Origin: Squalus acanthias
Lineage: Eukaryota
Assembly (NCBI GenBank): GCA_030390025.1
Contig: CM059431.1
Location: 119,476,001-119,540,000 of the forward strand
Direction: 5' to 3'
Length of the DNA: 64,000 nucleotides
A model generated the notes under the pieces. The model saw only the letters and a program-made list of their open reading frames with translations, ran no database searches and was not told the origin of the DNA. The translations under genes and the position numbers were made by a program. Below are positions 9,354 through 55,841 of the stretch, piece by piece (within the stretch, counting starts at the first letter, position 1; each line of letters opens with the position of its first letter).

Positions 9354-9365
9354 GTCCCTCCTGTT
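9354..9365 (-). promoter_or_regulatory. Polypurine tract of A1
   Basis: Minus-strand AACAGGAGGGAC lies immediately before the TGTAG start of the 3' LTR. Confidence 0.8.
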
Positions 9366-15394: not shown

Positions 15395-15398
15395 TTTC

Positions 15399-27504: not shown

Positions 27505-27830
27505 GGTTATCCCCTGTCCCCGTTGTTGTACACATTGGTAGCAGAACCATTAGGTTACATGATGCGAAAGGAACAAGGTGTATTTGGGATTGAGGTTCCC
27601 AGTTCCGGACGGGTGTCGGTGATACACCAATATGCAGATGACACAACCTTAACATTGAAAAATGGGGAGTCAGTGTGGAAAGCTATGGGTGTAGTGGAGG
27701 AATATTGTAAAGCTTCAGGAGTCAGAGTAAATTATAGTAAGTCCTAATGCCTGGTTGCAGAAAGGGGTAGGGCGGAATGGTTGGAGGAAAGTCCCTTTAA
27801 GGTGGTGGAGGTTTTGGAAGTTCTGGGGGT
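27505..27830 (+). pseudogene. Tx1 ORF2 RT core fragment
   Basis: GYPLSPLLYTLVAEPLG...QYADDTTL...SGVRVNYSKS...VLEVLGV. Confidence 0.85.
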
Positions 27831-29221: not shown

Positions 29222-29249
29222 TAATCCACCCTCAAGTGTCTGAACCTAA

Positions 29250-32200: not shown

Positions 32201-32725
32201 GCCTATCCAGTGGACGGGAGCTCCACAGAGCGGCTCTGCAGATATAAAACTATGGTTTGATAGCGTCCCCGAAGGGTTTATGCATCCATTGATTCCCTCA
32301 TGCTCCTGCCACCACCGTGGCCAACATAACAGGGTGTCTCCCGCTGCTCGGGATTGGGTCGGGCTTCCTACATTTCCCCGAGGGTTCCCTATCTGATAAT
32401 GCCTTGAATGGTTACCTGGTTCTCCTTGTAAAAACCACACCCTTGGCCGGGTGGGGCGATCTTTGCATTTTATGCAGACCCTCCCTACCTTCCTGGATCT
32501 CATAAGTGGTAACCCATACTGTCCCTGAATACACGGTTTCACAATTAACCTTGATGTACTGGAGGGTAATGTTTCGAGTGGTGTCCCGGGGTGGTGTCTC
32601 CGGGGCAACTGCAATTGAACTATTATCGGGAAAATAGTTAGTGTTGGTCCAGTATACTGAATAGGCTGACAGAAATCTTCGAGATAGAGCAGAATCCTGA
32701 TCATTGACCAGAATAATTCCTTCAT
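29250..32725 (-). pseudogene. env: env of element B, homologous to family A env (frameshifted, CR1-interrupted)
   Basis: IRTRR|GLINDAAIVFNTGTSLVNSLD vs RQRR|GLVNDAFTAFNTGTSVVNALD; FGYEIPPLPEHL vs FGYLIPPLPEHL; WIRITSHVLVV vs WVRIASHILVV. Confidence 0.9.
29654..30640 (-). mobile_element. 5'-truncated CR1 LINE inserted in env B
   Basis: KFADDTKMGG, LVRPHLEYCVQFW, RRNFFSQRVVNLWNSLP and a (TTCTTATG)n tail. Confidence 0.9.
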
Positions 32726-32993
32726 TTTATACAGTCCATGCTCTCAATACTGATGTATTTTTAAAAACAAAACAAAACAAAATGGGCTTCGTGATTTTCT
32801 TTTTCTGTATCGTGCAATTTTCTCACCCCTACCACTGATGATACTTCAAGGGTGTCTTTTTATTTCTTTTACTATGCTGCCATGGGGTAGGAGGGGTCTG
32901 TTGGATTCGTCTGCGGACAGGAGGTGGTTCCGGGCCTGGGGATGAGGAGGTTTCTACAGCTCCCATGTCCTGTCCACCTTCATTTGAATCACT

Positions 32994-33456
32994 GGGCTGG
33001 AATTTCATTGACCTGTGGAGGCGGGTTTGGAGGCGTGTGGGGGGTTAAAATTGCGAAAACTGACGGGCGGGCACAAGTCCGCGTCCATCCCGCCTCCATG
33101 CAATTTTCATTAAATCGTGTCTGCTGGTCCCGATTCCGTCCAGCCTTTAAGAGGCGGGATAGGCTGTTAAGGCCCTTATCAAGCACTAAATTGGCTCTAT
33201 AATGCCATTTTGATAGGCCTTTGTGATTTTAACCCTTGATCTATGTGAAGCACGCCTGTTCTGAACCACGATTGTGAAACCTGGCGGGAGCACATTTGGA
33301 TAGCTGACTATCAGCTGCAGGTCCACTATTACAATGGAGATGTGATGAAGGTAGTAGTAGTATTTGGTCTGAAAGTCGCCTCTGATGCTGCTGCATTGAA
33401 CGTCTTCAGAGACTGCCTGGCCTTTGCTGTGAGAGGACCTGGATGCAAAAAAAAAT

Positions 33457-33510
<54 letters not shown>

Positions 33511-33776
33511 TAGAGATGCTACTCATTTTGCATCCAGGTCCTCTCACAGCAAAGGCCAGGCAGTCTCTGACCTGCAATGCAGCAGCAATGATGACATCAT
33601 CAGAGGCAACTTTCAGACTGAAACCACTAATTGATTCATGGGTTCCCACATGCTGGAACTCAATTGCCCAATTAGGTGAAAATTGCATCAATCTCCCACA
33701 TCCAATTGCAGTCGGGTGGATAACACAAAATGCGGATGACACAACCCCAACCCGCCCCAGTATCAAAATCCAGCCC
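32994..33776. mobile_element. Harbinger-derived MITE with a long internal hairpin around a (TC)n tract
   Basis: TIRs GGGCTGGAATTT / AAAATCCAGCCC. Its subterminal sequence resembles 24510-24620. Confidence 0.75.
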
Positions 33777-33885
33777 CTTGTACCTGTGGAGGCACCACTT
33801 CAGTCAAGGGTGCCTCATTGGGTGGGGCTGTCCCATTAGGCACCCCCTCTTCATCATCCCACTGGGAAGGATAAATCCGGCTGAC

Positions 33886-35020
33886 TGAAGGGATATTTAC
33901 TAGTCCTAGCCCCTTTAGGGCTACCCTGGATCAGGAATATTTCTCAGACATTCAATTTCAACTAAAGTTTGAGGTAGCCGAATCCTAAAGGCGCTTAACT
34001 GGGTCTAAAGGTCTGGGCTAGCTCTCCCTAAAGGAAAGGAACAACCCGAGAATGTTACCATCCTCCAGATAGCGCTTTTAATAAGTTTAGCTAGACTGTA
34101 ACGTTCTGGATATTATGAGGGTCCGGAAAACTCCCTCAGAATTCTGCAACTCCTCACCAAAGAGTGCACAGAGATTGAGTTCACGAGTTTTTGATACAGA
34201 AGTCTTATGTGAGACAATTCTAAAAATATATACATTTATTAAAGAACCGACATGCAATTTACAGTTGGTGAATCAGTCAATCACAACATTAACCATTCTA
34301 AAAAGAGAAAAAATGCTATCTTATTATCAACAGAGAATCTTACTTTTAAATCTTAACTTCACTACAGTATTACAGTTCTTAATGATTTCTATTCAGGATA
34401 TCCATCAATATCAAATACCTTTGATCCCCGAGGTACAAAAAGTTGGAGACTACAGAGCCGCCTCTGAAGCCGAGAATAGCTTTGCCCGATTAAAACGAGT
34501 CTGTTATCCCATTTGAGAGTTCAATATTTATACCCTTTTCCAGTGGTATTTCCTTTAAGGTTTTCTGCTGATGCAAGCTAATTATCTCTAGTCATTTTTC
34601 TGCTGACCTCTGCAATTCTTACTGCCACATCAGCCAGAATCATGTCTCATCTCTAGGTGTTCTAAGTTTACCATATAAAAACGGTGTGATGGCAGGTGTT
34701 CCTTACTTTATGTCATCTTTACGAGGGCTGATTTTCCTTATCTTATCTTTACGAAGTGTAAATTAGAACACCTTATCCAGGGTGAACCATTGTTTCGTTC
34801 CCAAAAGTTCAGCTTGTCGGAACCCTTCACCTTCTGTTTCAATAAGGTTATTTATTCAGGGTCAACAACTGTCTTATCTCAACAGCCAGAATGCTTTCAT
34901 AGCTATTTTATAGTTAGGTTTCTAAATTTCCAAACCCAGTTTGTCATGTTTTAATAAGGCCAGAATTCTTTCATTAAGATAGTGTATTTTTCTGAATAGG
35001 TTATATGGCTTATTCCTTCA
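33886..35020 (-). repeat. Probable solo LTR of an unrelated family
   Basis: Termini TGAAGGGATA...TATTCCTTCA, with minus-strand TATAAA (~34530) and AATAAA (~34240). TSD not clean. Confidence 0.5.
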
Positions 35021-35023
35021 CAC

Positions 35024-35810
35024 TCACCATGTTCATAATCTTGGCTTGTTGTCTTCTTGACCTGCTTGTGGGCTGAAAAAGCTTAATCTGGTTAATATGA
35101 AACCATTTGATTTCCTTAGGTAACTGAACCATGTATACCATAGGACTAGCTTTGTCAACAATGTTATACAGCCCCTTTTAGAGGGGCTCAAAAACTCCCA
35201 TCTTCGCATAGTTTTGTACCATTACCTGGCTCTCCAATTCCCATTCCTGGGGTTTACTCGGAGCCACGTGTAGTCGGTTGCGTTGGTGTGCCGTCCCAAT
35301 GTTGTGGGCGGCCCTCAAGTTCAGTTCTTTTAAAGTTCCCCACAGGTCACTCAGGAATTTGTCCCGAGTCACCTCCTTAATTTGTTTATCAGTCAGAGTG
35401 GGGACCAACAGGTGTGTGGGGGTTTGCATGGGTCTCCCTGTTACCAATTCATGAGCAGAGTAACCCGTTCCTTTGGATTTGTGACTACGTATCCCCATAA
35501 GGATTAGGGGAAGTACCTCATCACACTTAGTGTGCTGTTCGTTTAATTCCTTTCGCAGAGCCAACTTCGATGTACGGTTCATTCTTCCCACAATTCCCGA
35601 TGACTGCGGGTTGTGTGTCACATGCTATTTCCCTTCAATTCCAAGCAATTTCAGAGTGGCTTGCATTACCTGACCTGTAAAATGACTTCCCTGGCCTGAC
35701 TCTACCACGTGAGGAAGTCCCCATCTGGAGAATACCTCTCTAACTAGGGTCTTGGTTGTCCATGAGGCTGTGGCCGACTTGCACGGGAAGACTTCTACCC
35801 ACCTGGTAAT
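35024..35810 (-). pseudogene. pol: Integrase core and C-terminal remnant of element B
   Basis: TRWVEVFPCK...VFSRWGLPHVVESGQGSHFTG...HNPQSSGIVGRMNRT, followed by a GPY/F-like KGLYNIVDK...KWFHINQIK module. Confidence 0.85.
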
Positions 35811-35899
35811 CTTGCACCATCAACACCCATCTGGCTCCATGCTTAAAAGAAAATACAGACAATCCATTGTGGTTTGCCTACGAGCCCAATAGTTCTATT

Positions 35900-36045
35900 T
35901 GTCTGACAGTTTATAGAGTTCAGACCCGTGGAACAGACAACACAAATCCCAATGAATTTGTGAAACTTTTTTTACTTAAAAATCAACAAGAGGTTACAAG
36001 TAATTACCAGAATACAAACTGTACTTAATTCATGTACATATTACA
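35900..36045 (-). repeat. Internal partial copy of the family B LTR
   Basis: TGTCTGACAGTTTATAGAGTTCAGACCC... matches 27847 and 48485 onward for about 145 bp. Confidence 0.85.
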
Positions 36046-38074
36046 ATTCCTGATTCCCTTCTGTCACTGTGGGGAAATATTCACTTAAAACGGAGCAGGC
36101 TCAAGGGGCCGTATGGCCTACTCCTGCTCTTATTTCTTATTAAGAAACTTAAATTTAATAATGTCCAATATCTTTAAATTTCATTCAGCAATAAAAAGCT
36201 GCTTTGCGGTGAATATAAAAAAAACAGATGTCAGTGGAAAGGGTTAACTCCTTTGCCAGTTTGTAAGAAGGCGGAGCAAATTGTTAGATGCATGCAATTG
36301 CGTCACTTCACGTAAATTTTGAAAAAACTTTCCTGATTGAAAAAGACAGTTTGGTTTTCACAATGTAACAGGTTAGTTAACTTTTTTTTCAAAAGAAGAC
36401 AAACCCAGATACCATCAATCAATGTCAACTTGTGTCACACAGCCTCTTGCAGCTTTCAGGTAAATTTAAAACTAAATCTTTGTGCCTTTAAAATTAGTAA
36501 CACCACTACAAACATTTTGTAAAACAACTCCACACACAATAATAGCATTTCTATTGTTTTCCCCTGGTCACACATACTTGAAATTGGTCAGAAATTTCAA
36601 AAATACCAATTGTTGATGTGATTGCCTCATGTCCGGAACTAAAGGCTTTCACACAATTTACACCAACCAGAATTTCACCGTGGCCACAATAAAAGTCTGG
36701 TTTAAACAGGTTAATTAACCTCAATAACTCCAATTCAATTCAAACCAGTATCTTAAACTAACCAGTACCACTTGGAAAACAAAAGTGGGAGGAGCTTCCC
36801 TCAGCTTGTAGCTTCGAAACATTCATACAAGTTTTTTTCAGACATCACTACACTGAAAGTAGAAGAGGGACAGGAGCTTTCCTTTCTCCTGTTTTTATTT
36901 CACTATAGGCTACTTGTCAAAAACTTAGAAAGTGGGCGTCTCGGACATGCAGTAACCAAATTAAGAAGACAGTGCTTTGTAAACGTTCAATTGATTTAAA
37001 ATCAAATCAAACAATTGCTATTTTTTGTAATACAATTAGAACAAAGTACTTTCAAAAAGTCCAAATTCATTTCTACCAGACATGATTAGAAACCATGGCA
37101 ACTGTAACGTCAAGGCTGAAGCTTATCTTTTGTAAAACAAACTGCCTCTGATTTACAGTTTGCTGTACAAGCTGTCCCAGTCAAAATATATCTACAGCAG
37201 TGTCTTTAACTTAAAAATACAAATCACAAAGTTTCTCCCACTTCTAGGCGCACAATCTTAAATTGAATTGAACATATTTAACACATCCACACTCCAACAT
37301 GTAAGATAAGACTTCAGAGGGTTAAAAAGGTTTAACTCCAAGCACAGAAAAGTGGGTGGAGCTAAAACAAATACAACAGACACTGAGGGCTGGATTTTGT
37401 CAGCCCCGAGGAGGCGGGCATGGAGGCAGGACTGCCGGTAAAGTAGCAGAAAGTGGGGGCGGATGGCAAACCCGCCCCCATCCCGCCTCCGTGCCCTTTT
37501 GCCAGGAGGCGGGAAGATGTCCTGTTTTTGGTCCCATCTCCTCGAGACGGGAAAGGGATTAAATCCTTTTAACTGCCTGTTAACAGGTAGTTAACAGGCT
37601 GAAAAAAGGATTAGTGCCATTTTACCTTCTCAGATGAAGGCTTCCCAACCTCGGAGAACCCTGCCAGGTTGGAGGAGTCGAGTAGGAGGTCTGTGGGGGT
37701 CGGAGGGGCCTGAAAGTGAGATGTAGAGGTGGGTGATGGGTGCAAGTGTGGAGTGGTAAGTATGTGAGGCGAGTGTTAAGTGTTAGAAAGTGTTCACTTA
37801 CCTTTATTTCTGCCTACAGCCTTCATCCGCTCTGGATCGGGAGTCCCAACATCTTCCTTGTAGATTTCACAGACTGGCTATTGGATCCTCTGAACCAACA
37901 GTCATCTGAAATCTACAAAGTTGAAAGGTTTGATGAGTCCTGAACACAAGGGCTCATCAAACTACACAGAATGTCAGTGTTTGACAGCTTCACAGAGCTG
38001 TCAAATGCTGACATTTCTTCATTCAAGAAGTCTTGACAGATCGCACGTCAGACGTTAACGTGCTCTGTCAGTGA

Positions 38075-39722
38075 TGTAGAATTCGCAATATATCGCGATT
38101 TTATTAATAAGGAGAAAACACAAAGTTTCGTTCAAACAGCTTTTATTTCAGCAGAATGCTGGCAGGTTTAAAGTGGACACAAGCAGCCTGTAAAATGGCC
38201 GCCGCACCTCGTGACAGAACATTCTAGACTTTTCAACAGGCAGACAAGATGGCGTTCCAATAAACATTTGTGCAAGGTCGATTAAGATTCAGCACAGTGA
38301 AGATAATACACGAGACATTATGGGTTTGCAGTATACACATAGATACTGAAATCGGTCTCCCAGGTACAAAGGAAAGCCATTGTACCGAGTAATCAAGGGC
38401 CCATCCAAAAGACATTAATATGTAAAATCCCAACGACTCTACGATGAGAGAGCCGTTAGCAGGTAGTTATACAGGACACTTGGAAGCCCCAAACCCCTCC
38501 AGGGAGAACATCGACCGATTTAACAATGGGAGAAATATTAACAGGTACTCAGACATTTACGAGTAGCCCCGAAACCCATTAAGAACGGAGATCACCCATA
38601 CAAGACATTTGGGCGCCAAACCCTAAACAAAAGAATGGACATTATAGTTGGGCGGGAAACAGAAGATTTTGCACTATAATTGCAGGCTCCAAACCGTCCA
38701 TTCTCTCTCTTGCTCCTGTGTTTTTATCCGGTCGATTCGTAACCTCGTGGCTGCTCCTGTGTACTCGTAGTTGGGCTTCTGCTTGCCTGTTGCCTCTTCT
38801 GAAAAGACTGTTGAACTTTCTGATCCGTTCGGATCTACCTCGTGTCGCGTAACGAAGACCTATGTTGGTAACTGGCAGCGGAACCGAAGGCCCGAGATGA
38901 GATGAGATGAGATGAGATGAGATGAGAAGAGAGGAAGACCATATCCATCGCCACGGTCAGTAAATCCCGACCGCGCCTGTAGGTCGATTAGCCAAGTTTT
39001 CCTCGCCAGGAAGACTTCTCTTGAACTTGCAAGGAAACATATCGTAGCGACGATATCGATAACTGTGCTCGAAGAGTACCTGTTAAGCCAACCAACACAG
39101 GTCTTTCATCACAGCAGACGGTCCAGCCTGCTAGCCGGAGCAGCAGAAGCAAGTAAACAAGTGGGACCAGGAGATCTCCTGACCGACACGTGGGTGCTGC
39201 GGTGAAAAACATCCGATCAGCTATTCGGAATTTCTCCGAGTTATCACGAGTGGTGAGCATGAGTCTCGAGATCCTACGAATCTAGTTTAGGATAGATATT
39301 GATAGGGGAGGGTTTAAGGATTAAGGATATTTGTAATGTGTGCCCCTATTTACTTTGTGCCGTTCGTTCCTCGTTTCCCTAAGATCGACTATATAACTGT
39401 TTGTAAGATTGTACTGTCATTAATCTGTGCTTATGACATGTATTTCATAATCTTAAGTATCATGCAATAAAGATTTTCCATTTCGTACCATTCAAACCAA
39501 GTCTACATGAGTTTTATCTCCATTACTGCTCTCGCATCTAAGTCCAGTGTCTAGAACCGTAAGGGAGAGTGATTCGAACCACTCACAGGTGTGTCTAGTG
39601 TTCCCAGACTGGCTGGAGACCAGAACAGGCAACAAGGCCTAGACCCGCACTGACATACAGGCTGCACAGAGCCGCGTGAATCTCACAGGCTGCGAGACAC
39701 GCAGGGTCAGGAATCCCTGACA
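38075..39722 (+). repeat. 5' LTR of A2
   Basis: TGTAGAATTC...CCCTGACA. TATA-like TATAAT at ~38675, (GAGAT)n, AATAAA at ~39466. Confidence 0.95.
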
Positions 39723-39726
39723 GAAA

Positions 39727-41538
39727 ATGGCGACCGCGGCAGGACACTGGCAGCGAGAGGGTAGTGTGTTAGATTTTGGAATGACTGTACGAAATGTTAT
39801 GCAGGAAAAGATAGCGGATTATGTGTTTGGAAAGGTTAATCTAACTAAGAAATGGATAAGTGAATTGTTAGCGGATAAGAGCCCACTAGAGGCAGCTGAA
39901 AGGTGGACGGATAGTAAAGAACATAGAAAGACACTTGAGAAAGCAGTCTGGCTTATGTGTTATAAAAGGCAGGTTCAGATTTCAAACCAGACCATTACAG
40001 CGCTAGTAGCTCGAATCAGTCATTTAGAGGGAGAAATGGAGGAGAAGGTTTCTGGAGGGGAGGTGCTCATTAAGAATTTAAATGAGTTACACCAAGAAAG
40101 CCAGGAAGTCTCCAGTCACCTTAAAACAAGGATAGATTATCTCGAGTGCCAGGTCACTGAGGCAAAATTGAATGAGAGCAGGTTAAAGGAAAGATGTAAC
40201 CGCCAAGCTGCCCAGATAAGAACTCAAGAAGAGAGCTTAATGGGGGTTAGGGCGGCATATAAGTTGGCCCTTGAGGATAAGTTTCAGGGAGCCGATCATA
40301 GCGCCTGCCAAAGGGAGATAAAGCACCTCAAAAAGGCCGTGAACAATGCGAACGGCATGGTGTGCCTTATCAATCCGTCGGCGCACCAGCCGCTAGTAAA
40401 TGAGAGATTTAGAAAATCCCCACCAAGTAAAGCAGAAGAAGTAGTAGCCACTGCGCCCTCCGCGCCACCCAGCTATTCAGAAACCTGGGTTAGGGAGGAA
40501 GCAATGGAAGAAACAAAAGAGCCCATTGAAAAGGAAGTAGAAAAGGGATCGTTGTATCCAGTAACGGGTATTAAAAGGGGCCCAAGCAGAAACGGTGGGG
40601 AAGAACCGGGGGATCTCCTCGGACAGCTGGTGTTGCCTCACAGTTCACATCAGCTGAGAGCTATGATAAATCACGTACGGAAGCTGACCGAGGCAGACGA
40701 CCCTTCCGTACATTTCAGAGAAGTTGAGCAAGCCGCAGCCATTAACGGCTGCGATGATGGGGAGACAGCAAAAATGCTGCTGTTCTCATTAGACAGCTCG
40801 GTCCTTCAGTGTCTCTCAGGCGAGAGCAAGAGGGGAACCAAGAGTTATGAGGAATTAAAGAATGAGGTCCTGGAAGTGTTGGGGGCGAACGACGAAGGTC
40901 CGTTTGCTAGAGTGGGACAGACAGTGCAGATGGAGGGAGAACCCCCGAAGGTTTTTGCCGACAGGCTGTGGCCAGTATATGAGCGCAGCTGTCTAGGTGC
41001 GCCCGAGCGCGAAGATGTGGAAGGTTTAGCTTTAACTCATTGGCTTAGGTGCATAATAGCCAACAGTTTACCAGCCGTTAGAGAGCAGGCAAAAGCATGG
41101 TTTGATCCCAATGACCCCAACATTACGGAAGAGTCGGTCTTGAATCGACTCACGTTAGGTTATCGCAATATAAGGGGTATGGCAACACGTCCCCTTAAGG
41201 GAAGAGTACATGAGGTACGACCCGCAGCCCCGTATCAAAGAGAGTGGCATCAGGAGGGTAATCGCGCCCCACAGGCAAGTAATGCTTGTTACGGGTGTGG
41301 GAAGACAGGGCACTGGCGCAAGCATTGCAGGAACCCTTGGAAGGATTCCAAGGATAAAAATCCCGCGGTCCGAGCCCAGGCGCCTGTCCCGGCTAAGGAA
41401 GCCAAGGCACCCACCCCTCCTGACGAACTCGAAGTAGTGTTAGGAGCCATGCGCAAGCTGGTCTTGAATGCGCGTGGACAGGTGGCGGTCGCAACCGGCC
41501 CCGTAGGTGCCGCAGGACCGTCTAATAGTACCCAATGA
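39727..41538 (+). CDS. gag: Gag, 603 aa
   Basis: About 92% identical to A1 Gag (47 differences counted by eye). CCHC knuckle and PSAPPSY present. Confidence 0.9.
   Translation: MATAAGHWQREGSVLDFGMTVRNVMQEKIADYVFGKVNLTKKWISELLADKSPLEAAERWTDSKEHRKTLEKAVWLMCYKRQVQISNQTITALVARISHLEGEMEEKVSGGEVLIKNLNELHQESQEVSSHLKTRIDYLECQVTEAKLNESRLKERCNRQAAQIRTQEESLMGVRAAYKLALEDKFQGADHSACQREIKHLKKAVNNANGMVCLINPSAHQPLVNERFRKSPPSKAEEVVATAPSAPPSYSETWVREEAMEETKEPIEKEVEKGSLYPVTGIKRGPSRNGGEEPGDLLGQLVLPHSSHQLRAMINHVRKLTEADDPSVHFREVEQAAAINGCDDGETAKMLLFSLDSSVLQCLSGESKRGTKSYEELKNEVLEVLGANDEGPFARVGQTVQMEGEPPKVFADRLWPVYERSCLGAPEREDVEGLALTHWLRCIIANSLPAVREQAKAWFDPNDPNITEESVLNRLTLGYRNIRGMATRPLKGRVHEVRPAAPYQREWHQEGNRAPQASNACYGCGKTGHWRKHCRNPWKDSKDKNPAVRAQAPVPAKEAKAPTPPDELEVVLGAMRKLVLNARGQVAVATGPVGAAGPSNSTQ
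39728..39745 (+). promoter_or_regulatory. Primer-binding site of A2
   Basis: TGGCGACCGCGGCAGGAC, identical to A1 and overlapping the first gag ATG. Confidence 0.65.
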
Positions 41539-42687
41539 CTAGAGCCCACGCAGCCTGCCTACCTGTGTCTTTTTAAAAGACACGCACAGGAGGGGGTCTG
41601 CGGTGAGGAGGCCAGGTTAAAAGAGCAGGCCTTGCGGGAGGAGAACGCCCGCTTAATAGGGAAAATAGATGGGCTGGAAGGGCAGCTTAGAGAGCAGACC
41701 CTGCGGGAGGAGAACGCCCGATCAATGGGAAAGTTGGACGTGCTCAGGCTAGAAGAGCAGCTTAGAGAGATAAAAGCAGCCTACAGGGTAGCCAAAAGCC
41801 GGGAGTATGAGGATGTAAACCAATGCAAACTGTACCAGCCAGGTGCGCAGGGGAAAACTACAGGGGTAAATCCCGCCAATGGGAAAGCACAGCCCCAGGT
41901 AGGACCACAAGGCACACAGGCAGGCATAGCAGCTTGCATCAGGGGAAGGGACATCCCGGACGATCATGCAGCGTTTTTCTGGAATTGGGGGTTAGATGAG
42001 GAAGAATTCAGGGTACCCTGGTCAGATGAGGATAGTGCAGATGAGCATAGTGATGATGACGGGTGGTTCCTGAGGAACGGTCTGGAGGGAATGGGGGCTG
42101 TAGGTAGAGATCCACACAGGGTGGACACACAAGCTGCAGGTCCCGAGGACAGGAGGGAGGAGCTAGAGGAGGCAGGGCCAGCCGCTATGGGAGCACAGAG
42201 AGTACCGGTGTGGCTCCCAGCGATGTGGCCACCCACTTTGAACGTCCAGTCCTCAGGGGAGGCAGAGATCACGAGTGAAGGGCCGCCTGCTGGGCTGAGC
42301 AGGGCGGAGCCACGAACTGCCAGCCCCGAGGTTAGGGAGGCGGAGTCAGCGGAGGCGGAGCCGGCGACTGTGATGGAACCCCAGGTCACCCCGATGGAGG
42401 TCTCGGAACCCGGTCCGTCCGTCACGGAACCCCCGCCCATAGCAACTCCCCGTAGGTCAAGTAGAGAACCCCAGCCCAGGAGGATGTGGTCATGTCCCCA
42501 GACTGCCCCAAGGCGTAAATTTAAGGTTAAGATAACCCAGGTACAGACCGGCCACATCGCAGCAGTAACAGGCTGCGGCAGATCAGAGGGAAGGGTCAGC
42601 GCAGCAACAGGCTGCGGCAGATCAGAGGGAAGGGTCAGTGCCCTCCCACCGTCGGGAAGAGCTCGCAGCAGCCTTCTCAGAATTTAA
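41539..42687 (+). CDS. ORF-X, in-frame continuation of gag after TGA
   Basis: CAA TGA CTA GAG... stays open to TAA at 42687. Homologous to A1 ORF-X. Confidence 0.75.
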   Translation, partial: LEPTQPAYLCLFKRHAQEGVCGEEARLKEQALREENARLIGKIDGLEGQLREQTLREENARSMGKLDVLRLEEQLREIKAAYRVAKSREYEDVNQCKLYQPGAQGKTTGVNPANGKAQPQVGPQGTQAGIAACIRGRDIPDDHAAFFWNWGLDEEEFRVPWSDEDSADEHSDDDGWFLRNGLEGMGAVGRDPHRVDTQAAGPEDRREELEEAGPAAMGAQRVPVWLPAMWPPTLNVQSSGEAEITSEGPPAGLSRAEPRTASPEVREAESAEAEPATVMEPQVTPMEVSEPGPSVTEPPPIATPRRSSREPQPRRMWSCPQTAPRRKFKVKITQVQTGHIAAVTGCGRSEGRVSAATGCGRSEGRVSALPPSGRARSSLLRI

Positions 42688-42975
42688 AGGGGCCGCCCTG
42701 AGAACGGGCGGCACTGTAAAGTTATAGTTTTAAGTTTTAAGTTAATAGTTCAAGGTTAAGTTTATAGTTTTTTTAATAAGGTTAAGTTTGTAGTGTTTTT
42801 AACAGAAAACGATAAAATGATGGGAGTTTTAAAGATAGGTTTAGTTGAAGTTTATTCAGCGAACGTTGAAGTTTACGTGAGGCGAGGTCAGGGGACCCGC
42901 TCACCCTTCACAAAAGCCAGAGACTCTTGCGAGGCTGGCTACCTCATTCTATCTGATCACAGGAACCAAGGAAGG

Positions 42976-45327
42976 ATGGAACGAATTCTAGTATTGCTCG
43001 TGGCAATCGGATGTGGATTGGCCTATCGAGGCCGCACCAAGGATGTCGTGGTGTTTGGATGTTCCGGGGACACGGCCCCCATCGCGGTGGATGGGACCGG
43101 AAGACGGGAGGCAGAGGAGACCAGCACCTATTTCCACAAGGGAAGGTGGCCAGGATGGCTGGGAACGAACTCAACGGAGTATTCCAGCACGTCGGGGTTT
43201 GCCTACAAAGAGACTTCTTTACTGTGCCCCAAAGTAAGGATCATCGCACCCAGGATCAGCGTCACCGTCGGCAAACGGATTTGTTTGACTTGTAGTGGGA
43301 AGGTCCCATTGAGCCGATGGTGGTGGCTGCGAAAGCTGAGCAAAACTATGAGAAACTCTTCGGTCGAGTGGGAACGACTGGGTAATAATACCCATCGGAC
43401 AATTACGGGGACAGACGGACAAGTGAAAGTCTGTTGGGACAAATGGTGGGAACCGGATGAGGGAATTTATGTATGTATGTGGGGGTCAAAGTACGTTTGC
43501 CCCAAAGGCATCTCCATATTTTTTATTAATCAATGGCAGGATAACGGACAGGGGATGAGGTGGGATGCGAGCACCAGGGGGTGCGGAGCCCCATTCTCCC
43601 CGATCCCAGTAAATGCCACTGAGCTCATTACGCGCCCACGCAAAGCCCCGCCCACGATTCCGGTGGTTCTAGCTGAGGAAGAAGGGTGCCCTAAAACTAG
43701 TAAGGGACCCGGGAATGGTTTGGTACTGGTCCCCACAGACCAGATACTATTTCAGGGGGTACATTACGCGGTGGCCTCGGTGATTTTAAATCTCACTGAG
43801 GTACGGTTACCAGAGTGGTGCCCCAAAAAGACGGAACAGTTGTACCAGGTCCTGTTGACCAAGATGTTCAGACAATTTTACGAATTCGATTTCGCGGAAA
43901 TTGATAAAACAAGTTTGTACACCGCGCCACAGGAAGTTTTGGATCAAGTAGGGAGGCAAAGAAGGGGTTTGGTGAACGATGCGTTCACTGCTTTTAACAC
44001 AGGTACATCTGTGGTCAACGCTCTAGACAGTGTGGAGCTGCAGACCCAGATTAATGGTTTAAAGACACAATTAAAGGACATTCTAACAGATGAGAATAAA
44101 GTGGTAGGGTCGGGTCTACACGAGGACCAAGCCATGACCCTCCATTTAAAGGAAATTATAGCAGAGTTGGAGAAACATGCAAAGACGGTAAATGCCCTGA
44201 TTAGGGAAGATCGGAATGCATCCGATCAAGCTGCGCAGAACGAGGTGTGCGTGCTTTACGGGGCGTGGTTACTGGGCGAGGGCCGCAGTAATTTGGAGGA
44301 TTTAAAACAAGGTTTGGTTCCGTCCTGGATAAGTAACAAACACCTACGGGCGCTCCACCCTTTTCAGAACGCATTAAGCCCGTGCCAGCTCAGGCTAGCT
44401 TCAGAAGCATACCCAGTCCCCGTGGACTGCGGACGATCAAACCATACTATTATGGGAATAGTATTACGTATGCCGGTTTTGGGCGACACAGCAAAGCCCG
44501 CCCCGGTATATCGGGTAGAGAACATCGGTGTCATTCAGGGGGGAGCCCACATTCGTTATGCAGCGGTTCCACCTTACGTCATCCGCTGGGAGCAAACGAT
44601 GACAGGTACAGATCTCTCTGGTTGTCGTGGCAGGGGAGCACACATAATACTGTGCCCCCAGCACTTGAATGCCTTTTTAACACCACAGTGCGGGTTCAGA
44701 ACGGCTGGCGCCAAGTCCATGAATTGCACCATGGAGGCAATGGCACAAGATCATGTGCCTCCGCAGGTAGCATACATCGGGGGTGGAACATATTGTGTTA
44801 CCACTGCAGCGCAACACTACCAGCATGGAAACCGTAGCCGGTGTCCGGTGAGTGACAGCAGTTTCTGTTTTAAACCCAGGGCGGAAGTTCAAGTAGCACA
44901 ACAGCGAATTATCCCAATCCCTGAACCATCCACTGTTCATCTCACAGTAAAAGAGAATTTCACCGACTTGCAGCGATTCGTCGCGCATTTTGGATACCTC
45001 ATTCCCCCTCTCCCTGAACACCTCACCAAGCTTTTAAAAGCCGTCGCGGTGTCACAGAAACATTTTTATACATTAGAGCAGAAAACTGTCGAAATAGGAA
45101 CAGACATTCTGGTTATAGTAGTTCCACCGTGGTGGAATCTGTTCACTAATATTGAAGTGCCTTCATGGATCAGAATAGCCTCCCACATTTTAGTCGTATG
45201 CCAAGTTTTCATTGTAGTGTACCTATTGGTCGTACATTGTAAAAGAGACAAACGCCTCACCAAGCATGAAAACACGGGAGAGTGGCGAGAACGTTACGTG
45301 CGCGTGCACGATGAAAGCACCGTGTAA
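42976..45327 (+). CDS. env: Envelope glycoprotein, 783 aa (Ig-like + F-type fusion protein)
   Basis: About 98% identical to A1 Env (17 differences counted by eye). The ATG at 42976 follows the acceptor-like CTGATCACAG|G. Confidence 0.9.
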   Translation: MERILVLLVAIGCGLAYRGRTKDVVVFGCSGDTAPIAVDGTGRREAEETSTYFHKGRWPGWLGTNSTEYSSTSGFAYKETSLLCPKVRIIAPRISVTVGKRICLTCSGKVPLSRWWWLRKLSKTMRNSSVEWERLGNNTHRTITGTDGQVKVCWDKWWEPDEGIYVCMWGSKYVCPKGISIFFINQWQDNGQGMRWDASTRGCGAPFSPIPVNATELITRPRKAPPTIPVVLAEEEGCPKTSKGPGNGLVLVPTDQILFQGVHYAVASVILNLTEVRLPEWCPKKTEQLYQVLLTKMFRQFYEFDFAEIDKTSLYTAPQEVLDQVGRQRRGLVNDAFTAFNTGTSVVNALDSVELQTQINGLKTQLKDILTDENKVVGSGLHEDQAMTLHLKEIIAELEKHAKTVNALIREDRNASDQAAQNEVCVLYGAWLLGEGRSNLEDLKQGLVPSWISNKHLRALHPFQNALSPCQLRLASEAYPVPVDCGRSNHTIMGIVLRMPVLGDTAKPAPVYRVENIGVIQGGAHIRYAAVPPYVIRWEQTMTGTDLSGCRGRGAHIILCPQHLNAFLTPQCGFRTAGAKSMNCTMEAMAQDHVPPQVAYIGGGTYCVTTAAQHYQHGNRSRCPVSDSSFCFKPRAEVQVAQQRIIPIPEPSTVHLTVKENFTDLQRFVAHFGYLIPPLPEHLTKLLKAVAVSQKHFYTLEQKTVEIGTDILVIVVPPWWNLFTNIEVPSWIRIASHILVVCQVFIVVYLLVVHCKRDKRLTKHENTGEWRERYVRVHDESTV

Positions 45328-45766
45328 TCGGAAAATGGCGTCACTCCCGCTCGCCGCGTGCGCCGCGGAAGTTTGTACTCATATAAGATTTTCAGAGATT
45401 GTAAATACGTTGGGAACTCGACATGTTTTCAGAGTTGGTGTTGATTTATTTTGGTGATGGTGTTACAGTTAAAAATGATTGTTTGGTTTTGGGTTTTGTT
45501 TCTCCTTTCCCTGAATAAAAGATGAATATACAGGTGATACGAGAGGCATCGGCCTGGTTACGCCGGGAAGGAAAACAAGTGGTGTAAGTTTAAGGGCAAA
45601 TAATGCCTACGGTGATATAAAATGTAATCTTCTTGGGAAATGAGGACGACACAGAGACCCTAGCTAAGTTAAAATTATGGGATTAATTTACTGGATTCGG
45701 AGAGAAATCGAGATAATATTGCTCACCATTATGATTTTTGATACGATAAGCGGAGTTATTCGCATC

Positions 45767-45778
45767 AACAGGAGGGAC
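45767..45778 (+). promoter_or_regulatory. Polypurine tract of A2
   Basis: AACAGGAGGGAC lies directly before the 3' LTR. Confidence 0.8.
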
Positions 45779-47426
45779 TGTAGAATTCGCAATATATCGC
45801 GATTTTATTAATAAGGAGAAAACACAAAGTTTCGTTCAAACAGCTTTTATTTCAGCAGAATGCTGGCAGGTTTAAAGTGGACACAAGCAGCCTGTAAAAT
45901 GGCCGCCGCACCTCGTGACAGAACATTCTAGACTTTTCAACAGGCAGACAAGATGGCGTTCCAATAAACATTTGTGCAAGGTCGATTAAGATTCAGCACA
46001 GTGAAGATAATACACGAGACATTATGGGTTTGCAGTATACACATAGATACTGAAATCGGTCTCCCAGGTACAAAGGAAAGCCATTGTACCGAGTAATCAA
46101 GGGCCCATCCAAAAGACATTAATATGTAAAATCCCAACGACTCTACGATGAGAGAGCCGTTAGCAGGTAGTTATACAGGACACTTGGAAGCCCCAAACCC
46201 CTCCAGGGAGAACACCGACCGATTTAACAATGGGAGAAATATTAACAGGTACTCAGACATTTACGAGTAGCCCCGAAACCCATTAAGAACGGAGATCACC
46301 CATACAAGACATTTGGGCGCCAAACCCTAAACAAAAGAATGGACATTATAGTTGGGCGGGAAACGGAAGATTTTGCACTATAATTGCAGGCTCCAAACCG
46401 TCCATTCTCTCTCTTGCTCCTGTGTTTTTATCCGGTCGATTCGTAACCTCGTGGCTGCTCCTGTGTACTCGTAGTTGGGCTTCTGCTTGCCTGTTGCCTC
46501 TTCTGAAAAGACTGTTGAACTTTCTGATCCGTTCGGATCTACCTCGTGTCGCGTAACGAAGACCTATGTTGGTAACTGGCAGCGGAACCGAAGGCCCGAG
46601 ATGAGATGAGATGAGATGAGATGAGATGAGAAGAGAGGAAGACCATATCCATCGCCACGGTCAGTAAATCCCGACCGCGCCTGTAGGTCGATTAGCCAAG
46701 TTTTCCTCGCCAGGAAGACTTCTCTTGAACTTGCAAGGAAACATATCGTAGCGACGATATCGATAACTGTGCTCGAAGAGTACCTGTTAAGCCAACCAAC
46801 ACAGGTCTTTCATCACAGCAGACGGTCCAGCCTGCTAGCCGGAGCAGCAGAAGCAAGTAAACAAGTGGGACCAGGAGATCTCCTGACCGACACGTGGGTG
46901 CTGCGGTGAAAAACATCCGATCAGCTATTCGGAATTTCTCCGAGTTATCACGAGTGGTGAGCATGAGTCTCGAGATCCTACGAATCTAGTTTAGGATAGA
47001 TATTGATAGGGGAGGGTTTAAGGATTAAGGATATTTGTAATGTGTGCCCCTATTTACTTTGTGCCGTTCGTTCCTCGTTTCCCTAAGATCGACTATATAA
47101 CTGCTTGTAAGATTGTACTGTCATTAATCTGTGCTTATGACATGTATTTCATAATCTTAAGTATCATGCAATAAAGATTTTCCATTTCGTACCATTCAAA
47201 CCAAGTCTACATGAGTTTTATCTCCATTACTGCTCTCGCATCTAAGTCCAGTGTCTAGAACCGTAAGGGAGAGTGATTCGAACCACTCACAGGTGTGTCT
47301 AGTGTTCCCAGACTGGCTGGAGACCAGAACAGGCAACAAGGCCTAGACCCGCACTGACATACAGGCTGCACAGAGCCGCGTGAATCTCACAGGCTGCGAG
47401 ACACGCAGGGTCAGGAATCCCTTACA
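45779..47426 (+). repeat. 3' LTR of A2
   Basis: Repeat of 38075-39722 at offset 7704, with at least 4 substitutions seen. Confidence 0.95.
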
Positions 47427-47719
47427 GTGACTTCCCCCTAATTGGCCTGCTGAGCCCGCAGGGCGGGCTTAACAAGGTCAATCAGGGGAGAGTTCCGCTG
47501 GTTGGCCAGAGGCTGATGGAGGCGGGACATAGACCCGGCAAGCAGCAGTCCCGCCTCCATCACGTCTCCATTGAGAAAATCCAGCCCTTTCTTTCAAAGA
47601 CAGACTTTCAGACAAAAGGATTACTGTAACTTCTTAAAATTCATAGTCAGGAAAACTTCCACACTTTAATAGACACTTTCACACAAACTGAAATTCCAGC
47701 ATCCTTTAAGTTTCCTTTC

Positions 47720-48468: not shown

Positions 48469-49114
48469 TGTAAGACGTTCTGATTGTCTGACAGTTTATA
48501 GAGTTCAGACCCGTGGAACAGACAACACAAAACCCAATGAATCTGTGAAACTTCTTTTACTTAAAAATCAATAAGAGGTTACAAGTAATTACCAGAATAC
48601 AAACTGGACTCAATTCATGTACTTATTACAAGCAAACATCTATAATCATTTACTTTCGGCTCAGGTGATTATAAGCACCACATACGTACTAACACCAGAT
48701 GAGAGGTCAATTCAACGATGACTAGACGTATGACTTTAACTGGCAACTGACCAGGTCACCATCGACTATAGCACCGAATGTCAGTTTACAACATCCCTTA
48801 TACCCCAAAACTTGGCAACTCGCCCACAGCATTTGTGTCCTAAACTGTGTGATTAACGTTGTTTTTCTCTCTCTCCTTCTATCTGTTTTGACGCTTAGTT
48901 AACCAAGGCCAGACATTCAAGGATTGGCGAGAGTCGTTGTTTTCACGTTTCCAGGTTGCTGACTCGTGGTTCTCATAGAATTTTCAAGATCTTATCTTTT
49001 GAAGGAAAAATACCAGCACATCATGTTTTAGCCAAGCAGTCTCTTGCCCTCAAAGCTTGTCGGTACATTTGGTCACTTTTCGATTCAGTCAAGTTTACCA
49101 TGGACAGTATTACA
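48469..49114 (-). repeat. 5' LTR of element B (646 bp)
   Basis: TG...CA ends, adjacent PBS, followed by TSD GGGT. Confidence 0.9.
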
Positions 49115-52027: not shown

Positions 52028-55000
52028 GGCCTCGATATTTACAGGGAGGCGGGGAGGGTGTGAGGGAGGAAGAAAATGGGACGGGTGACGAGTCAAGGCC
52101 GGGGATGCAGAAGTCCTGCTGAATTTAACGGCAGGACTTCATTATAATTTTCTTTCTTCCATTTCCCGCCTGGCAGCTGGCCCAACTGTCAATTGGACTG
52201 GCTGCTGGGCAGAAAACCAGCGGCAGGAGGCCGCAGCTGGTGACCCTTGGGGACCGTCCCCGGCAATCGAAAAGGGGGAGGGAGCAAGAGATCAGGGCTT
52301 GAGTGGGGAGGGGGGGGAAGGAGTGAAGAGAGTGGTAATCGGGAGGGGGGAAGAGAGAGACAACCAGGAGGGGGGAAGAGAGGCAATCAGGAGGGGGGAA
52401 GAGAAGGCAATCAGGAGGGGGAAGAGAGGCAATCAGGAGGGGAAAGAGAGGCAATCAGGAGGGGGAAAGAGAGGTAATCAGGAGGGGGGAAGAGAGGCAA
52501 TCAGGAGGGGGGAAGAGAAAGGCAATCAGGAGGGGGAAAGAGAGGCAATCAGGAGGGGGAAGAGAAAGGCAATTAGGAGGGGGAAAGAGAGGCAATCAGG
52601 AGGGGGGAAGAGAGGTAATTGGGAGGGGGGAACAGAGGTAATTGGGAGGGGGGAACAGAGGTAATTGGGAGGGGGGGAACAGAGGTAATCGGGAGGGGGG
52701 AAGAGAGGTAATCAGGAGGGGGGAAGAGAGGTAATCGGGAGGGGGGAAGAGAAAGGCAATCAGGAGGGGGAAAGAGAGGTAATCGGGAGGGGGGAAGAGA
52801 GGTAATCGGGAGGGGGGAAGAGAGGTAATCAGGAGGGGGGAAGAGAGGTAATCGGGAGGGGGGAAGAGAGGTAATCAGGAGGGGGGAAGAGAAAGGCAAT
52901 CAGGAGGGGGAAAGAGAGGTAATCGGGAGGGGGGAAGAGAGGTAATCAGGAGGGGGGAAGAGAGGTAATCAGGAGGGGGGAAGAGAAAGGCAATCAGGAG
53001 GGGGAAGGAGAGGCAATCAGGAGGGGGAAAGAGAGGTAATCGGGAGAGGGGAAGAGAGGTAATCGGGAGGGGGGAAGAGAGAGGCAATCAGGAGGGGGAA
53101 AGAGAGTCAATCAGGAGGGGGAAAGAGAGGTAATCGGGAGGGGGGAAGAGAGGTAATCGGGAGGGGGGAAGAGAGGTAATCAGGAGGGGGGAAGAGAAAG
53201 GCAATCAGGAGGGGGAAAGAGAGGCAATCAGGAGGGGAAGAGAAAGGCAATCAGGAGGGGGAAAGAGAGGCAATCAGGAGGGGGAAAGAGAGGCAATCAG
53301 GAGGGGGGAAGAGAGGTAATTGGGAGGGGGGAACAGAGGTAATTGGGAGGGGGGAACAGAGGTAATTGGGAGGGGGGAACAGAGGTAATCGGGAGGGGGG
53401 AACAGAGGTAATTGGGAGGGGGGAACAGAGGTAATCGGGAGGGGGGAAGAGACAGGCAATCAGGAGGGGGAAAGAGAGGTAATCGGGAGGGGGGAAGAGA
53501 GGTAATCGGGAGGGGGGAAGAGAGGTAATCGGGAGGGGGGAAGAGAGGTAATCGGGAGGGGGGAAGAGAGGTAATCAGGAGGGGGGAAGAGAAAGGCAAT
53601 CAGGAGGGGGAAAGAGAGGTAATCGGGAGGGGGAAGGAGAGGCAATCAGGAGGGGGAAAGAGAGGTAATCGGGAGGGGGGAAGAGAGTCAATCAGGAGGG
53701 GGGAAGAGAGGTAATCGGGAGGGGGGAAGAGAGGTAATCGGGAGGGGGGAAGAGAGTCAATCAGGAGGGGGGAAGAGAGGTAATCGGGAGGGGGGAAGAG
53801 AGTCAATCAGGAGGGGGGAAGAGAGGTAATCGGGAGGGGGGAAGAGAGGTAATCGGCAGGGGGGAAGAGAGGTAATCGGGAGGGGGGAAGAGAGGCAATC
53901 AGGAGGGGGGAAGAGAGTGGTAATCGGGAGGGGGGAAGAGAGGTAATCGGGAGGGGGGAAGAGAGGTAATCGGGAGGGGGGAAGAGAGGTAATCTTGAGG
54001 TGGGAAGAGAGGTAATCGGGAGGGGGGAGGAGAGGTAATCGGGAGCGGGAAGAGAGGTAATCGGGAGGGGGGAAGAGAGGTAATCGGGAGGGGGGAAGAG
54101 AGGTAATCGGGAGGGGGGAAGAGAGGCAATCAGGAGGGGGAAAGAGAGGCAATCAGGAGGGGGGAAGAGAGGTAATTGGGAGGGGGGAAGAGACAGGCAA
54201 TCAGGAGGGGGGAAGAGAGGTAATCGGGAGGGGGGAAGAGAGGTAATCGGGAGGGGGGAAGAGAGGTAATCAGGAGGGGGGAAGAGAAAGGCAATCAGGA
54301 GGGGGAAAGAGAGTCAATCAGGAGGGGGAAAGAGAGGTAATCGGGAGGGGGGAAGAGAGGTAATCAGGAGGGGGGAAGAGAGGTAATCGGGAGGGGGGAA
54401 GAGAGAGGCAATCAGGAGGGGGGAAGAGAGAGGCAATCAGGAGGGGGAAAGAGAGTCAATCAGGAGGGGGAAAGAGAGGTAATCGGGAGGGGGGAAGAGA
54501 GGTAATCAGGAGGGGGGAAGAGAGGTAATCGGGAGGGGGGAAGAGAGGTAATCGGGAGGGGGGAAGAGAGGTAATCGGGAGGGGGGAAGAGAGTCAATCA
54601 GGAGGGGGGAAGAGAGGTAATCGGGAGGGGGGAAGAGAGGTAATCGGCAGGGGGGGAAGAGAGGTAATCGGGAGGGGGGAAGAGAGGTAATCGGGAGGGA
54701 GGAAGAGAGGTAATCGGGAGGGGGGAAGAGAGGTAATCGGGAGGGGGGAAGAGAGGCAATCGGGAGGGGGAAGAGAGAGGCAATCAGGAGGGGGGAAGAG
54801 AGAGGCAATCAGGAGGGGGGAAGAGAGAGGCAATCAGAAAAGGGGAAGAGAGGCAATCAGGAGGGGGGAAGAGAGAGGTAATCGGGAGGGGGGAAGAGAG
54901 TCAATCAGGAGGGGGAAAGAGAGGTAATCGGGAAGGGGGAAGAGAGGTAATCAGGAGGGGGGAAGAGAGGTAATCGGGAGGGGGGAAGAGAGGTAATCGG

Positions 55001-55841
55001 GAGGGGGGAAGAGAGGTAATCGGGAGGGGGGAAGAGAGTCAATCAGGAGGGGGGAAGAGAGGTAATCGGGAGGGGGGAAGAGAGGTAATCGGCAGGGGGG
55101 GAAGAGAGGTAATCGGGAGGGGGGAAGAGAGGTAATCGGGAGGGAGGAAGAGAGGTAATCGGGAGGGGGGAAGAGAGGTAATCGGGAGGGGGGAAGAGAG
55201 GCAATCGGGAGGGGGGAAGAGAGAGGCAATCAGGAGGGGGGAAGAGAGAGGCAATCAGGAGTGGGGAAGAGAGAGGCAATCAGAAAAGGGGAAGAGAGGC
55301 AATCAGGAGGGGGGAAGAGAGAGGTAATCGGGAGGGGGGAAGAGAGAGGTAATCGGGAGGGGGGAAATGAGAGTCAACTGGGAGGGGTGAAGGCTGGAGA
55401 TCATTGCTTGGGTGGTGGAGTTTGGCTGCGATCGCGGCATGGAGCAGACATCGGTGCTGGGGGGGGTGGGGGAGCTCTGCCATCGCGGTGCGGAGGAGAG
55501 AGACCACGATCGCCAGAGGGGAGGCTGAAGGCTTGCTTGAGGGTCCGGGGGGATCACTCCCGCACCTTCTGTCCCACAAGGATTGCTGTAAAAAGCACTT
55601 AACTTCTTGAGCCTCCCTTTCACTGCTGTGTTTCACAAGCCCTGGGAAACCCACACGGCAACTGTTAAATTGAAATCAGGCTGACAATTGCACTTTGGGA
55701 GCGAGATTTAAATATGTTAATGATGTGGCCCGCCTCTGCACTCACACACCACAAAACCTGCCGCCGTAAAAACGGCAACGGGCACGTACCCCCCCTCCCC
55801 GACGCTCTCGCGCTCTTCATTGGCTGGTTAATATCGAGGCC
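52028..55841. mobile_element. Harbinger-type MITE containing an expanded minisatellite
   Basis: TIRs GGCCTCGATATTTAC / GTTAATATCGAGGCC and 3-bp TSD ATT. Confidence 0.85.
52330..55370. repeat. G-rich ~21-23 bp minisatellite (AGGTAATCGGGAGGGGGGAAGAG)n
   Basis: Direct tandem array of about 3 kb with variant units. Confidence 0.97.

Follow-up and report, generated by a model that had tools for sequence, protein, structure and literature searches.

The open reading frame at 42976-45327 on the plus strand of the window, by which we mean the entire 64,000-nucleotide stretch of Squalus acanthias DNA that was analysed, encodes the envelope protein (Env) of an endogenous retrovirus (ERV) whose activity has been both recent and massive. 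The best explanation, with a probability of roughly 0.7, is that this ERV belongs to an early branch of the Retroviridae, in a grade related to SnRV and Ovex1 (in the sense of 'clade Huo'), and is not a lokiretrovirus (Loki). The F-type fold of the Env, its domain order, a reverse transcriptase (RT) that falls outside Loki, the copy numbers, the youth of the family and purifying selection were all observed for this ERV. The best reading of the family is that of a recently active retrovirus that spreads with a class I F-type fusogen, presumably a working one, together with helper-dependent pol-less copies.

The envelope gene and its predicted fold

The env gene is intact, codes for 783 aa from Met and lies in an 855-codon open frame (42760-45327) with a likely Met start at 42976. 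A candidate splice acceptor AG, recognized from the sequence only, is found at 42961-42962. The sequence-only reading had assigned 43720..45327 to Env, but the gene begins about 750 nt upstream and includes an additional N-terminal region that is probably Ig-like. This region opens with a signal-peptide-like segment, identified by eye (aa 1-16, 43023 being its last nucleotide and 42976 its first), and aa ~88-184 (43237-43527) probably form an Ig-like domain with the pattern C103...W...DEGIYVC167. Pfam Ig_3 scores (E 0.49 for Env itself; in homologs E 0.0085, with V-set at E 0.045) point weakly in this direction, as does an ESM Atlas value of 0.80 that serves as a lead only. The strands of the Ig-like region have a pLDDT of 38-69, and the N-terminal region folded alone, with no alignment, gave 33.7. 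Residues 17-235 form an addition to the F-type core, with weak signs of an Ig-like head.

The segments that follow are arranged as in F proteins. An F2-equivalent segment (aa 245-326, 43708-43953), whose first residue lies opposite F0 residues 26-38 when the model is superposed, ends at the predicted furin site RQRR (aa 327-330), exactly at the position 43954-43965 and close to aa 330 as noted earlier. Downstream, a putative fusion peptide (aa 331-350) leads into long helices including heptad repeat HR1 (aa 347-444; together 43966-44307), located by the model, hydropathy and hhalign. The helices agree with the heptad repeat proposed from the sequence, but the segment that had been called fusion-peptide-like is only mildly hydrophobic, with a mean Kyte-Doolittle value of 0.68 over 20 aa versus 1.96 in a Loki Env. 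The F1-equivalent continues with Cys-rich beta domains (aa 477-645, 44404-44910; mostly pLDDT 73-96), and the landmarks listed for a Cys-rich region (DLSGC, ILCP, C572, NC583-584 and YC606-607) were all found. An HR2-like helix (aa 679-711, 45010-45108) is modelled with low confidence. A hydrophobic peak marks the TM helix (aa 734-755), after which comes a tail with YVRV at aa 774-777 (45175-45306 for helix and tail), in accordance with the YxxPhi motif that had been pointed out. YxxPhi motifs act in endocytosis or polarised sorting, and YVRV may direct either process in Env. The distance from RQRR to the hydrophobic peak at aa 734 is 404 aa, where about 400 had been estimated. Env does not have the characters of a gamma-type protein: there is no CX6CC motif in its 783 aa, as had been observed before, the ectodomain measures 404 aa and Pfam gives no TLV_coat match.

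For structure prediction 38 of 50 homologs were aligned with the query Env and submitted to AlphaFold, as a monomer only. The named members among these 50 are sharks, a skate and frogs, and the closest named homologs are from cartilaginous fish (Rhinoraja 76%, Pristiophorus 54-74%), which supports the cartilaginous-fish host suggested from the sequence. The model has a mean pLDDT of 61.5 and a pTM of 0.48; core residues 241-300 and 421-650 mostly reach 80-96, and the fusion peptide, HR2 and the N-terminus are of low confidence. In a Foldseek search of the PDB the best matches were hPIV3 F and RSV F (E 4.2e-10), and all 36 matches listed were paramyxovirus or pneumovirus F proteins. An independent wide structure search returned NDV F (Z 11.6, rmsd 19.3, 371 aligned), PIV5 (Z 9.3), hMPV F (Z 9.1, rmsd 6.4, 287 aligned) and foamy Env (Z 8.4, rmsd 12.6, 307 aligned, and Z 7.6), the best unrelated row, which consisted of helices, being at Z 7.8. 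A second comparison gave Z 12.0-12.5, with NiV F at Z 12.0 (rmsd 5.4, 292 aligned). These structure-search alignments span only aa 245-653. Among predicted viral structures, matches were obtained with lispivirus G, baculovirus F and the Env of WEHV-1 (E 4e-11), WDSV (E 1e-8) and feline foamy virus (E 2e-5).

Profile searches were less revealing. Pfam TLV_coat, Fusion_gly and Baculo_F did not match the full Env (E<=1) or two core fragments (E<=10), phmmer against the PDB gave nothing significant, and the best hit of a PDB profile search was a coronavirus spike stem at a non-significant E of 0.18. A control Loki Env did match Pfam Fusion_gly (E 0.002). Of the profile matches anticipated for Fusion_gly and Baculo_F, neither came from Pfam and both came from ESM Atlas (0.91 and 0.92). 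Since Pfam detects no F protein, the F-like character of this Env is invisible to single-sequence profile scans; the fold and ESM Atlas reveal it. The nested-domain core and the furin site before the fusion peptide place Env, at the level of the predicted monomer, with the class I F-type fusogens. The claim that it is F-protein-like and not a classical SU/TM protein is thereby upheld by the structural match that had been asked of a prediction.

More distant Env proteins could be aligned as well. The Env profile scored 35-63 bits against Loki, 30 against WDSV and 13 against SnRV Env (shuffles <=0.2), whereas a profile from named chondrichthyan Env only gave 17-29 for Loki and left WDSV and SnRV under the shuffle maximum of 4.7. 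With hhalign the probabilities were 98.4% (Loki), 96.8% (WDSV, 457 columns including the TM region) and 95.0% (SnRV), all in register. Identity to Loki Env is 17%, the same figure as for SnRV Env.

By analogy with known class I proteins, Env would be made from a spliced mRNA and trimerise, after which furin would cut at RQRR and so separate F1 from a part made up of Ig-head and F2. The Ig-like head could bind the receptor in cis, replacing the separate H/HN/G protein of paramyxoviruses, and HR1 and HR2 would refold into a six-helix bundle that drives membrane fusion.

Proviruses, copy number and mode of spread

Env is part of provirus B (38075-47426, plus strand), a pol-less element of the layout LTR-gag-(pol remnant)-env-LTR, flanked by a 4-bp target duplication GTGA (38071-38074 and 47427-47430). 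Its 5′ LTR (38075-39722; 1,648 bp, TG...CA) carries TATATA at 39390 and AATAAA at 39466. The 3′ LTR (45779-47426), preceded by a short polypurine tract at 45770-45778, differs from it at 4 of the 1,648 sites. A primer-binding site (39728-39745), all 18 positions of which match the 3′ terminus of the host's tRNA-Arg(TCG), overlaps the start codon of gag (39727-41538), whose 603-aa product has an N-terminal coiled coil and one CCHC knuckle. Its stop codon stands in the context UGA-CUAG, which counts as type II readthrough in PMC13517186. The pol remnant ORF (41539-42687, 382 aa) consists of the first ~10 codons and the C-terminal tail of pol and contains no PR, RT, RH or IN core detectable by Pfam. 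A coiled-coil-like, in-frame insert of 246 nt (41570-41815) replaces ~3.6 kb of pol; no source for it was found among the loci compared, the best match (E 0.066) being the Gag coiled coil of the element itself. Provirus A (7753-16999, minus strand) has the same pol-less layout and insert, identical 1,601-bp LTRs (0 differences), a target duplication that matches at 3/4 positions and an env (12129-9778) whose product is 97.8% identical in amino acids to B Env. The absence of pol from both copies in the window had been overlooked in the sequence-only reading.

Genome searches with gag and env uncovered sister copies in which the two genes lie 3.4 kb farther apart. Three of the four fetched have an uninterrupted pol frame of ~1,500 codons and the fourth a frameshift; the domains encoded are PR, RT, tether, RH and IN. 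Target duplications are 4 bp long in 8/8 fetched copies, as in provirus B. All four pol-bearing sisters are 99.4-99.6% (gag) and 98.9-99.6% (env) identical to pol-less B, whereas A and B are 94-95% identical. Because B is nearer to the pol-bearing sisters than to A, yet shares the insert with A (~97-98%), the sequences suggest that pol-less and pol-bearing forms recombine. The pol-less form would be copied in trans by pol-bearing helpers, and recombination with these helpers would keep its gag and env intact.

Counting of 22-mers with up to 1 mismatch (reversed-pattern controls 0) gave 2,926 matches for env, 2,263 for RT and 791 for the insert in 3.7 Gb. If most copies are full length, the family occupies roughly 36 Mb, or ~1% of the assembly, a figure that has haplotype duplicates and shared LTRs counted in. 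The env count is close to the 3,054 of RT plus insert, and env is therefore rarely lost. A comparison of A with B gives a dN/dS of 0.061 for env, and comparisons with three pol-bearing copies, which reach a dS of 0.41, give 0.033-0.081, compared with 0.22-0.26 for gag, 0.13 for pol and 0.86 for the pol remnant of A versus B. The env frame was intact in 57/57 of the best-scoring among 12,902 candidates, a ratio that overstates intactness because only best-scoring candidates were taken. The suggestion that the locus carries a potentially functional fusogen is supported: the intact ORF and dN/dS values of 0.03-0.08 make function likely.

Two modes of spread can be considered. The family most likely amplifies by reinfection, given how seldom env is lost and how much tighter the constraint on it is than on gag or pol. 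A less likely option is that it now spreads mainly inside cells, by retrotransposition in cis or trans, and that the conservation of env is inherited from a recent infectious ancestor. ERVs without env are viewed as those that spread most, and a copy number of about 2,900 is very high where a family bears env. Tandem copies that share LTRs, with a spacing of 7.7 and 11.1 kb, and the pol-less subfamily also point to intragenomic processes. On this account, however, env would not be expected in nearly as many copies as RT and insert combined, nor to keep dN/dS at or below 0.08 across subfamilies, lower than in gag and pol. Reinfection is thus the preferred mode.

In sequencing data consulted for expression, no RNA data set was listed with the element. 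Three contig sets, which are not on record as RNA, cover 30/30 bins and show no splice joint, and 14 runs (7 studies, 6 organism codes) contain over half of the sequence words.

Position relative to lokiretroviruses and foamy viruses

Placement by RT was done on a pol-bearing sister that is 99.5% identical in gag/env to the window copy. The first tree kept 48 of 77 segments after removal of near-duplicate foamy, gamma, delta and beta rows and of partial rows; the second combined 29 of those 48, none of them delta or beta, with 13 added ones. The foamy (mammalian-type), delta and beta records are presumably what their genome lengths and motifs, by which they were labelled, indicate, and a long-branched row with a delta label (L079) fell among the beta records. 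The SnRV reference is a 10,688-nt record with the length given in PMC12193657 and the RT of the PMC7947760 supplement. WDSV and MoMLV were identified by lengths as in the accessible part of PMC13517186, and Loki rows by host names and motif match to the portion of the PMC7947760 supplement at hand.

The element RT falls inside the non-Loki retroviruses with support of 100/97 in the first and 100/99 in the second tree and is excluded from a 12-member Loki clade. It sits on an early branch that also contains amphibian elements and a pair of rows, one of them from a ratite, which we infer to be Ovex1-like; the order among the non-Loki lineages is not settled in these trees, which were built without ERV-L, ERV4, Ovex1 proper, CmiERV and Odin references and without foamy-like ERVs of fish or sharks. 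An AU test rejected a clade of element and Loki (p=0.0002), also when amphibian and Ovex1-like rows were added to it (p=0.017). Grouping the element with the amphibian and Ovex1-like rows and SnRV was not rejected (p 0.29), and this grouping was not recovered in the ML RT trees. The tether tree agrees weakly with the RT placement (84/94, and 83/93 for grouping with SnRV) and has Loki monophyletic without the element. Loki is likewise monophyletic without it in the IN tree, where the element and Loki are part of a basal polytomy. The element has the RT motif LPQGF, as SnRV does; PFG is present in 24/24 Loki RT rows examined from the available PMC7947760 supplement.

These results bear on the proposal, made from the sequence alone, that the elements are loki-like. 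One rival view would make the family the first lokiretrovirus of cartilaginous fish or, alternatively, a Loki backbone into which recombination brought a retroviral RT; we regard it as improbable. The part of the proposal that concerns the Env stands, as Loki Env is its best outside match. The raw scores of the element are also higher to Loki than to SnRV for Env (60 versus 13 bits), tether (86-99 versus 58) and IN (241-264 versus 136), and IN and tether exceed their scores to WDSV, MLV and foamy viruses as well. The UGA-CUA stop context is shared with both Loki loci that were checked. The top Pol matches are amphibian proteins labelled 'NYNRIN-like' (40-42%), and Loki IN was reported to lie near CGIN1 (PMC7947760); by eye, the integrase sequence of these amphibian proteins differs from the published ones of Loki-Rca and Loki-Xtr. 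Membership itself is not supported by RT, on the AU test and on LPQGF versus PFG, and it is on RT that Loki was defined, as sister to all other retroviruses, in PMC7947760. In phylogenies of RT, IN and tether, of the kind that had been recommended, Loki is monophyletic without the element, the base of the IN tree being a polytomy. Moreover, an Env identity of 17% is no higher than that to SnRV, and the best matches to a Loki Pol in the shark's own genome reach just 34-36%. In our reading, the Loki-like Env, IN and tether scores and the UGA-CUA context reflect ancestral states that early branches retained because they evolve slowly. Two further characters do not discriminate. The dual RNase H (tether and RH) of the pol-bearing sister is not diagnostic for Loki because it is common to all retroviruses, and F-likeness is not because foamy, WDSV and SnRV Env match too.

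With Loki as published (PMC7947760) the element has in common a gag-pol-env order with LTRs, tether plus RH, and a homologous F-like Env that contains an RXXR site, a fusion peptide, a coiled coil and a TM helix. The element Env differs from the Loki Env compared by ~210 extra N-terminal residues with a probable Ig fold, so that 330 instead of 122 residues precede the furin site, and by a weaker fusion peptide. A primer site was not identified in two Loki loci. Loki is described there as having an Env homologous to Mononegavirales F and an optional smc-like coiled-coil gene; Pfam found no SMC domain in the window element, whose coiled coils are in Gag and the 246-nt insert. Six chondrichthyan genomes shown in that source apparently lack the mark carried by lokiretrovirus hosts, if we interpret the mark correctly.

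That the element is a foamy-like ERV, with an Env type already known to be F-like, is very improbable. Foamy Env structures do match (Z 8.4 and 7.6) and endogenous foamy viruses are reported from cartilaginous fish. Yet the RT is outside the foamy clade (100/100) in trees that hold no fish or shark foamy-like ERVs, and it is not epsilon either. The Gag CCHC knuckle, in-frame readthrough to pol and a 783-aa Env with a short N-terminal signal-like segment also argue against a foamy virus. Domestication of env by the host as a syncytin-like fusogen, which strong purifying selection might suggest, can hardly be reconciled with thousands of dispersed copies in intact LTR pairs with differing target duplications instead of one orthologous locus. 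ERV3/ERV4, with a 5-bp target duplication and no Gag zinc finger (PMC4299795), was set aside as a candidate class: the element has 4 bp and a CCHC knuckle.

Related elements and the origin of the F-type envelope

Among named viruses SnRV has the best RT match (44-46%), and it shares with the element a tRNA-Arg primer and an Env that aligns in register. A coiled-coil Gag with one zinc finger and gag-pol readthrough are traits in common with SnRV and clade Huo. The SnRV Gag traits are taken from the accessible part of PMC2717909, and SnRV-like ERVs are treated, as far as these sources were available, in PMC6001957 (clade Huo), PMC4422223 (CmiERV lineage I), PMC2717909 (Ovex1/SpeV) and PMC4299795. 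There are differences as well: the element is primed by Arg(TCG) and SnRV by Arg(ACG), the stop contexts are UGA-CUAG and UAG-GGC, SnRV has a shorter Env and tail, and no accessory ORFs were seen in the element. Paramyxovirus and pneumovirus F and foamy Env (PMC11468914, in part) have the same nested-domain class I core and F2/furin/F1 order over residues 245-653, but identity is 7-16%, the N-terminal domain is appended in the element, and its Env, unlike paramyxovirus or pneumovirus F, is encoded by an LTR element with a retroviral RT. The epsilonretroviruses WDSV and WEHV resemble it in predicted Env structure and, for WDSV, by hhalign, but not in RT.

The literature already contains F-like Env proteins of Loki (PMC7947760), of foamy viruses (PMC11468914) and of gypsy elements from invertebrates (10.1101/2023.10.26.564294). 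Our literature search, which covered few subscription papers, returned no description of this shark ERV family and no statement of an F-like Env in SnRV or epsilon viruses. The family is not described in the accessible portions of PMC12440569, PMC10435555, PMC12583693 and PMC11521997. It could be included in the supplement of PMC10435555, which covers 412 invading ERVs and a screen of 13 cartilaginous genomes, or in that of PMC6001957, and 10.1101/2021.11.23.469661 (anamniote Env), PMC9040795 (Odin) and PMC10699275 may bear on novelty.

Since the shark virus is not Loki, the F-type envelope has a wider distribution among early-branching retroviruses than reported. Finding no significant similarity between Loki Env and the Env of other retroviruses, Wang and Han (PMC7947760) left four scenarios for the origin of retroviral env open. 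The shark Env bridges this gap: Loki, WDSV and SnRV Env all align with a single profile (hhalign 98/97/95%), and both paramyxovirus F and foamy Env match a single model. These matches favour a common ancestor with an F-type Env and open the question to phylogenetic testing. A wider scenario, which we put forward tentatively and at somewhat less than even odds, is that an F-type Env was ancestral to retroviruses and lokiretroviruses and was kept by Loki, foamy viruses, SnRV, epsilonretroviruses and the shark/amphibian grade, gamma-type SU/TM being a later replacement or reduction. The shark family would then belong to the earliest branch outside Loki and still be replicating; it would combine Loki-like Env, IN, tether and readthrough with a retroviral RT and, together with an env-keeping pol-less satellite form, fill ~1% of the shark genome.

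For structural work the family offers a young, abundant F-type retroviral Env that is intact and brings its own candidate receptor domain. It also exemplifies an ERV of very high copy number in which env is retained, with pol-less copies retaining both gag and env. The zebrafish BHIKHARI elements (10.1101/2024.03.25.586437, in part) are comparable as pol-less, recently active LTR elements with a coiled-coil Gag; Bik-1, which is Loki-related, has Gag only, whereas the shark element retains gag and env and has pol replaced by a small insert.

Relatives of the F-type Env

Between copy B and the copies L124, L125 and L126, which belong to other subfamilies of the family, env DNA is far better conserved than gag DNA. 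Identity to copy B is 90-96% in env versus 78-86% in gag, and for L124 the dS values against copy B are 0.15 and 0.40, respectively. Because of this difference, the sequences suggest that env has been exchanged between subfamilies of the element. Near-identical env words (42976-45327) are also present in 14 public runs from 7 studies and 6 organism codes, with 52-76% of the env 31-mers found in those runs, 3 of which were aligned to the gene; this sequence overlap hints that several species carry a very close family. The Env proteins of SnRV (L029:7628-9160) and WDSV (L099:7129-8661) align to the F-type Env profile over F2, the furin site, HR1 and the Cys-rich region, and a literature search found no published statement of this alignment.

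The window itself contains a decayed third relative (27833-36185, minus strand), with a related repeat at 48471-49114. Its env remnants (29390-31968) match the copy-B F-type Env at 35-46%, and an integrase piece (35055-35810) matches at 62%. The repeats at 27833-28381, 35886-36046 and 48471-49021 resemble LTR pieces.

The pol-replacing insert and the leader of copy B

The insert that replaces pol (41570-41815) lies in frame downstream of the readthrough stop. It contains a 69-nt internal repeat and codes for a coiled-coil-like peptide. Seven of the eight codons that changed between copies A and B are nonsynonymous, and no source of the insert was found among the loci compared. At 39723-39745 the primer site of copy B is overlapped by the gag ATG and lies 5 nt from the LTR end, the gap on the polypurine side being 2 nt; little of the leader remains for a packaging signal.

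Tandem proviruses, primer tRNA arrays and other repeats

Head-to-tail tandem proviruses occur in the genome, among others at C7:29043232-29056511 and C22:50762694-50775626. Their spacing, 7.7 kb for pol-less and 11.1 kb for pol-bearing elements, is consistent with neighbouring proviruses that share one LTR.

Large tandem arrays of the tRNA-Arg(TCG) 3' end, with a 1,623-bp unit, lie at C26:38.99-42.2 Mb; this tRNA is the primer tRNA of the F-type Env retrovirus family. Its 3' end has 429 matches genome-wide, and the single array locus scanned holds one tRNA-Arg and one tRNA-Ser gene.

Two further ORFs are found at 25490-27593 of the window, the first (330 aa) with weak coiled-coil matches only in Pfam and the second (225 aa) with no Pfam match. 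A purine-rich tandem repeat, with 130 copies of a 23-bp unit, occupies 52329-55366.
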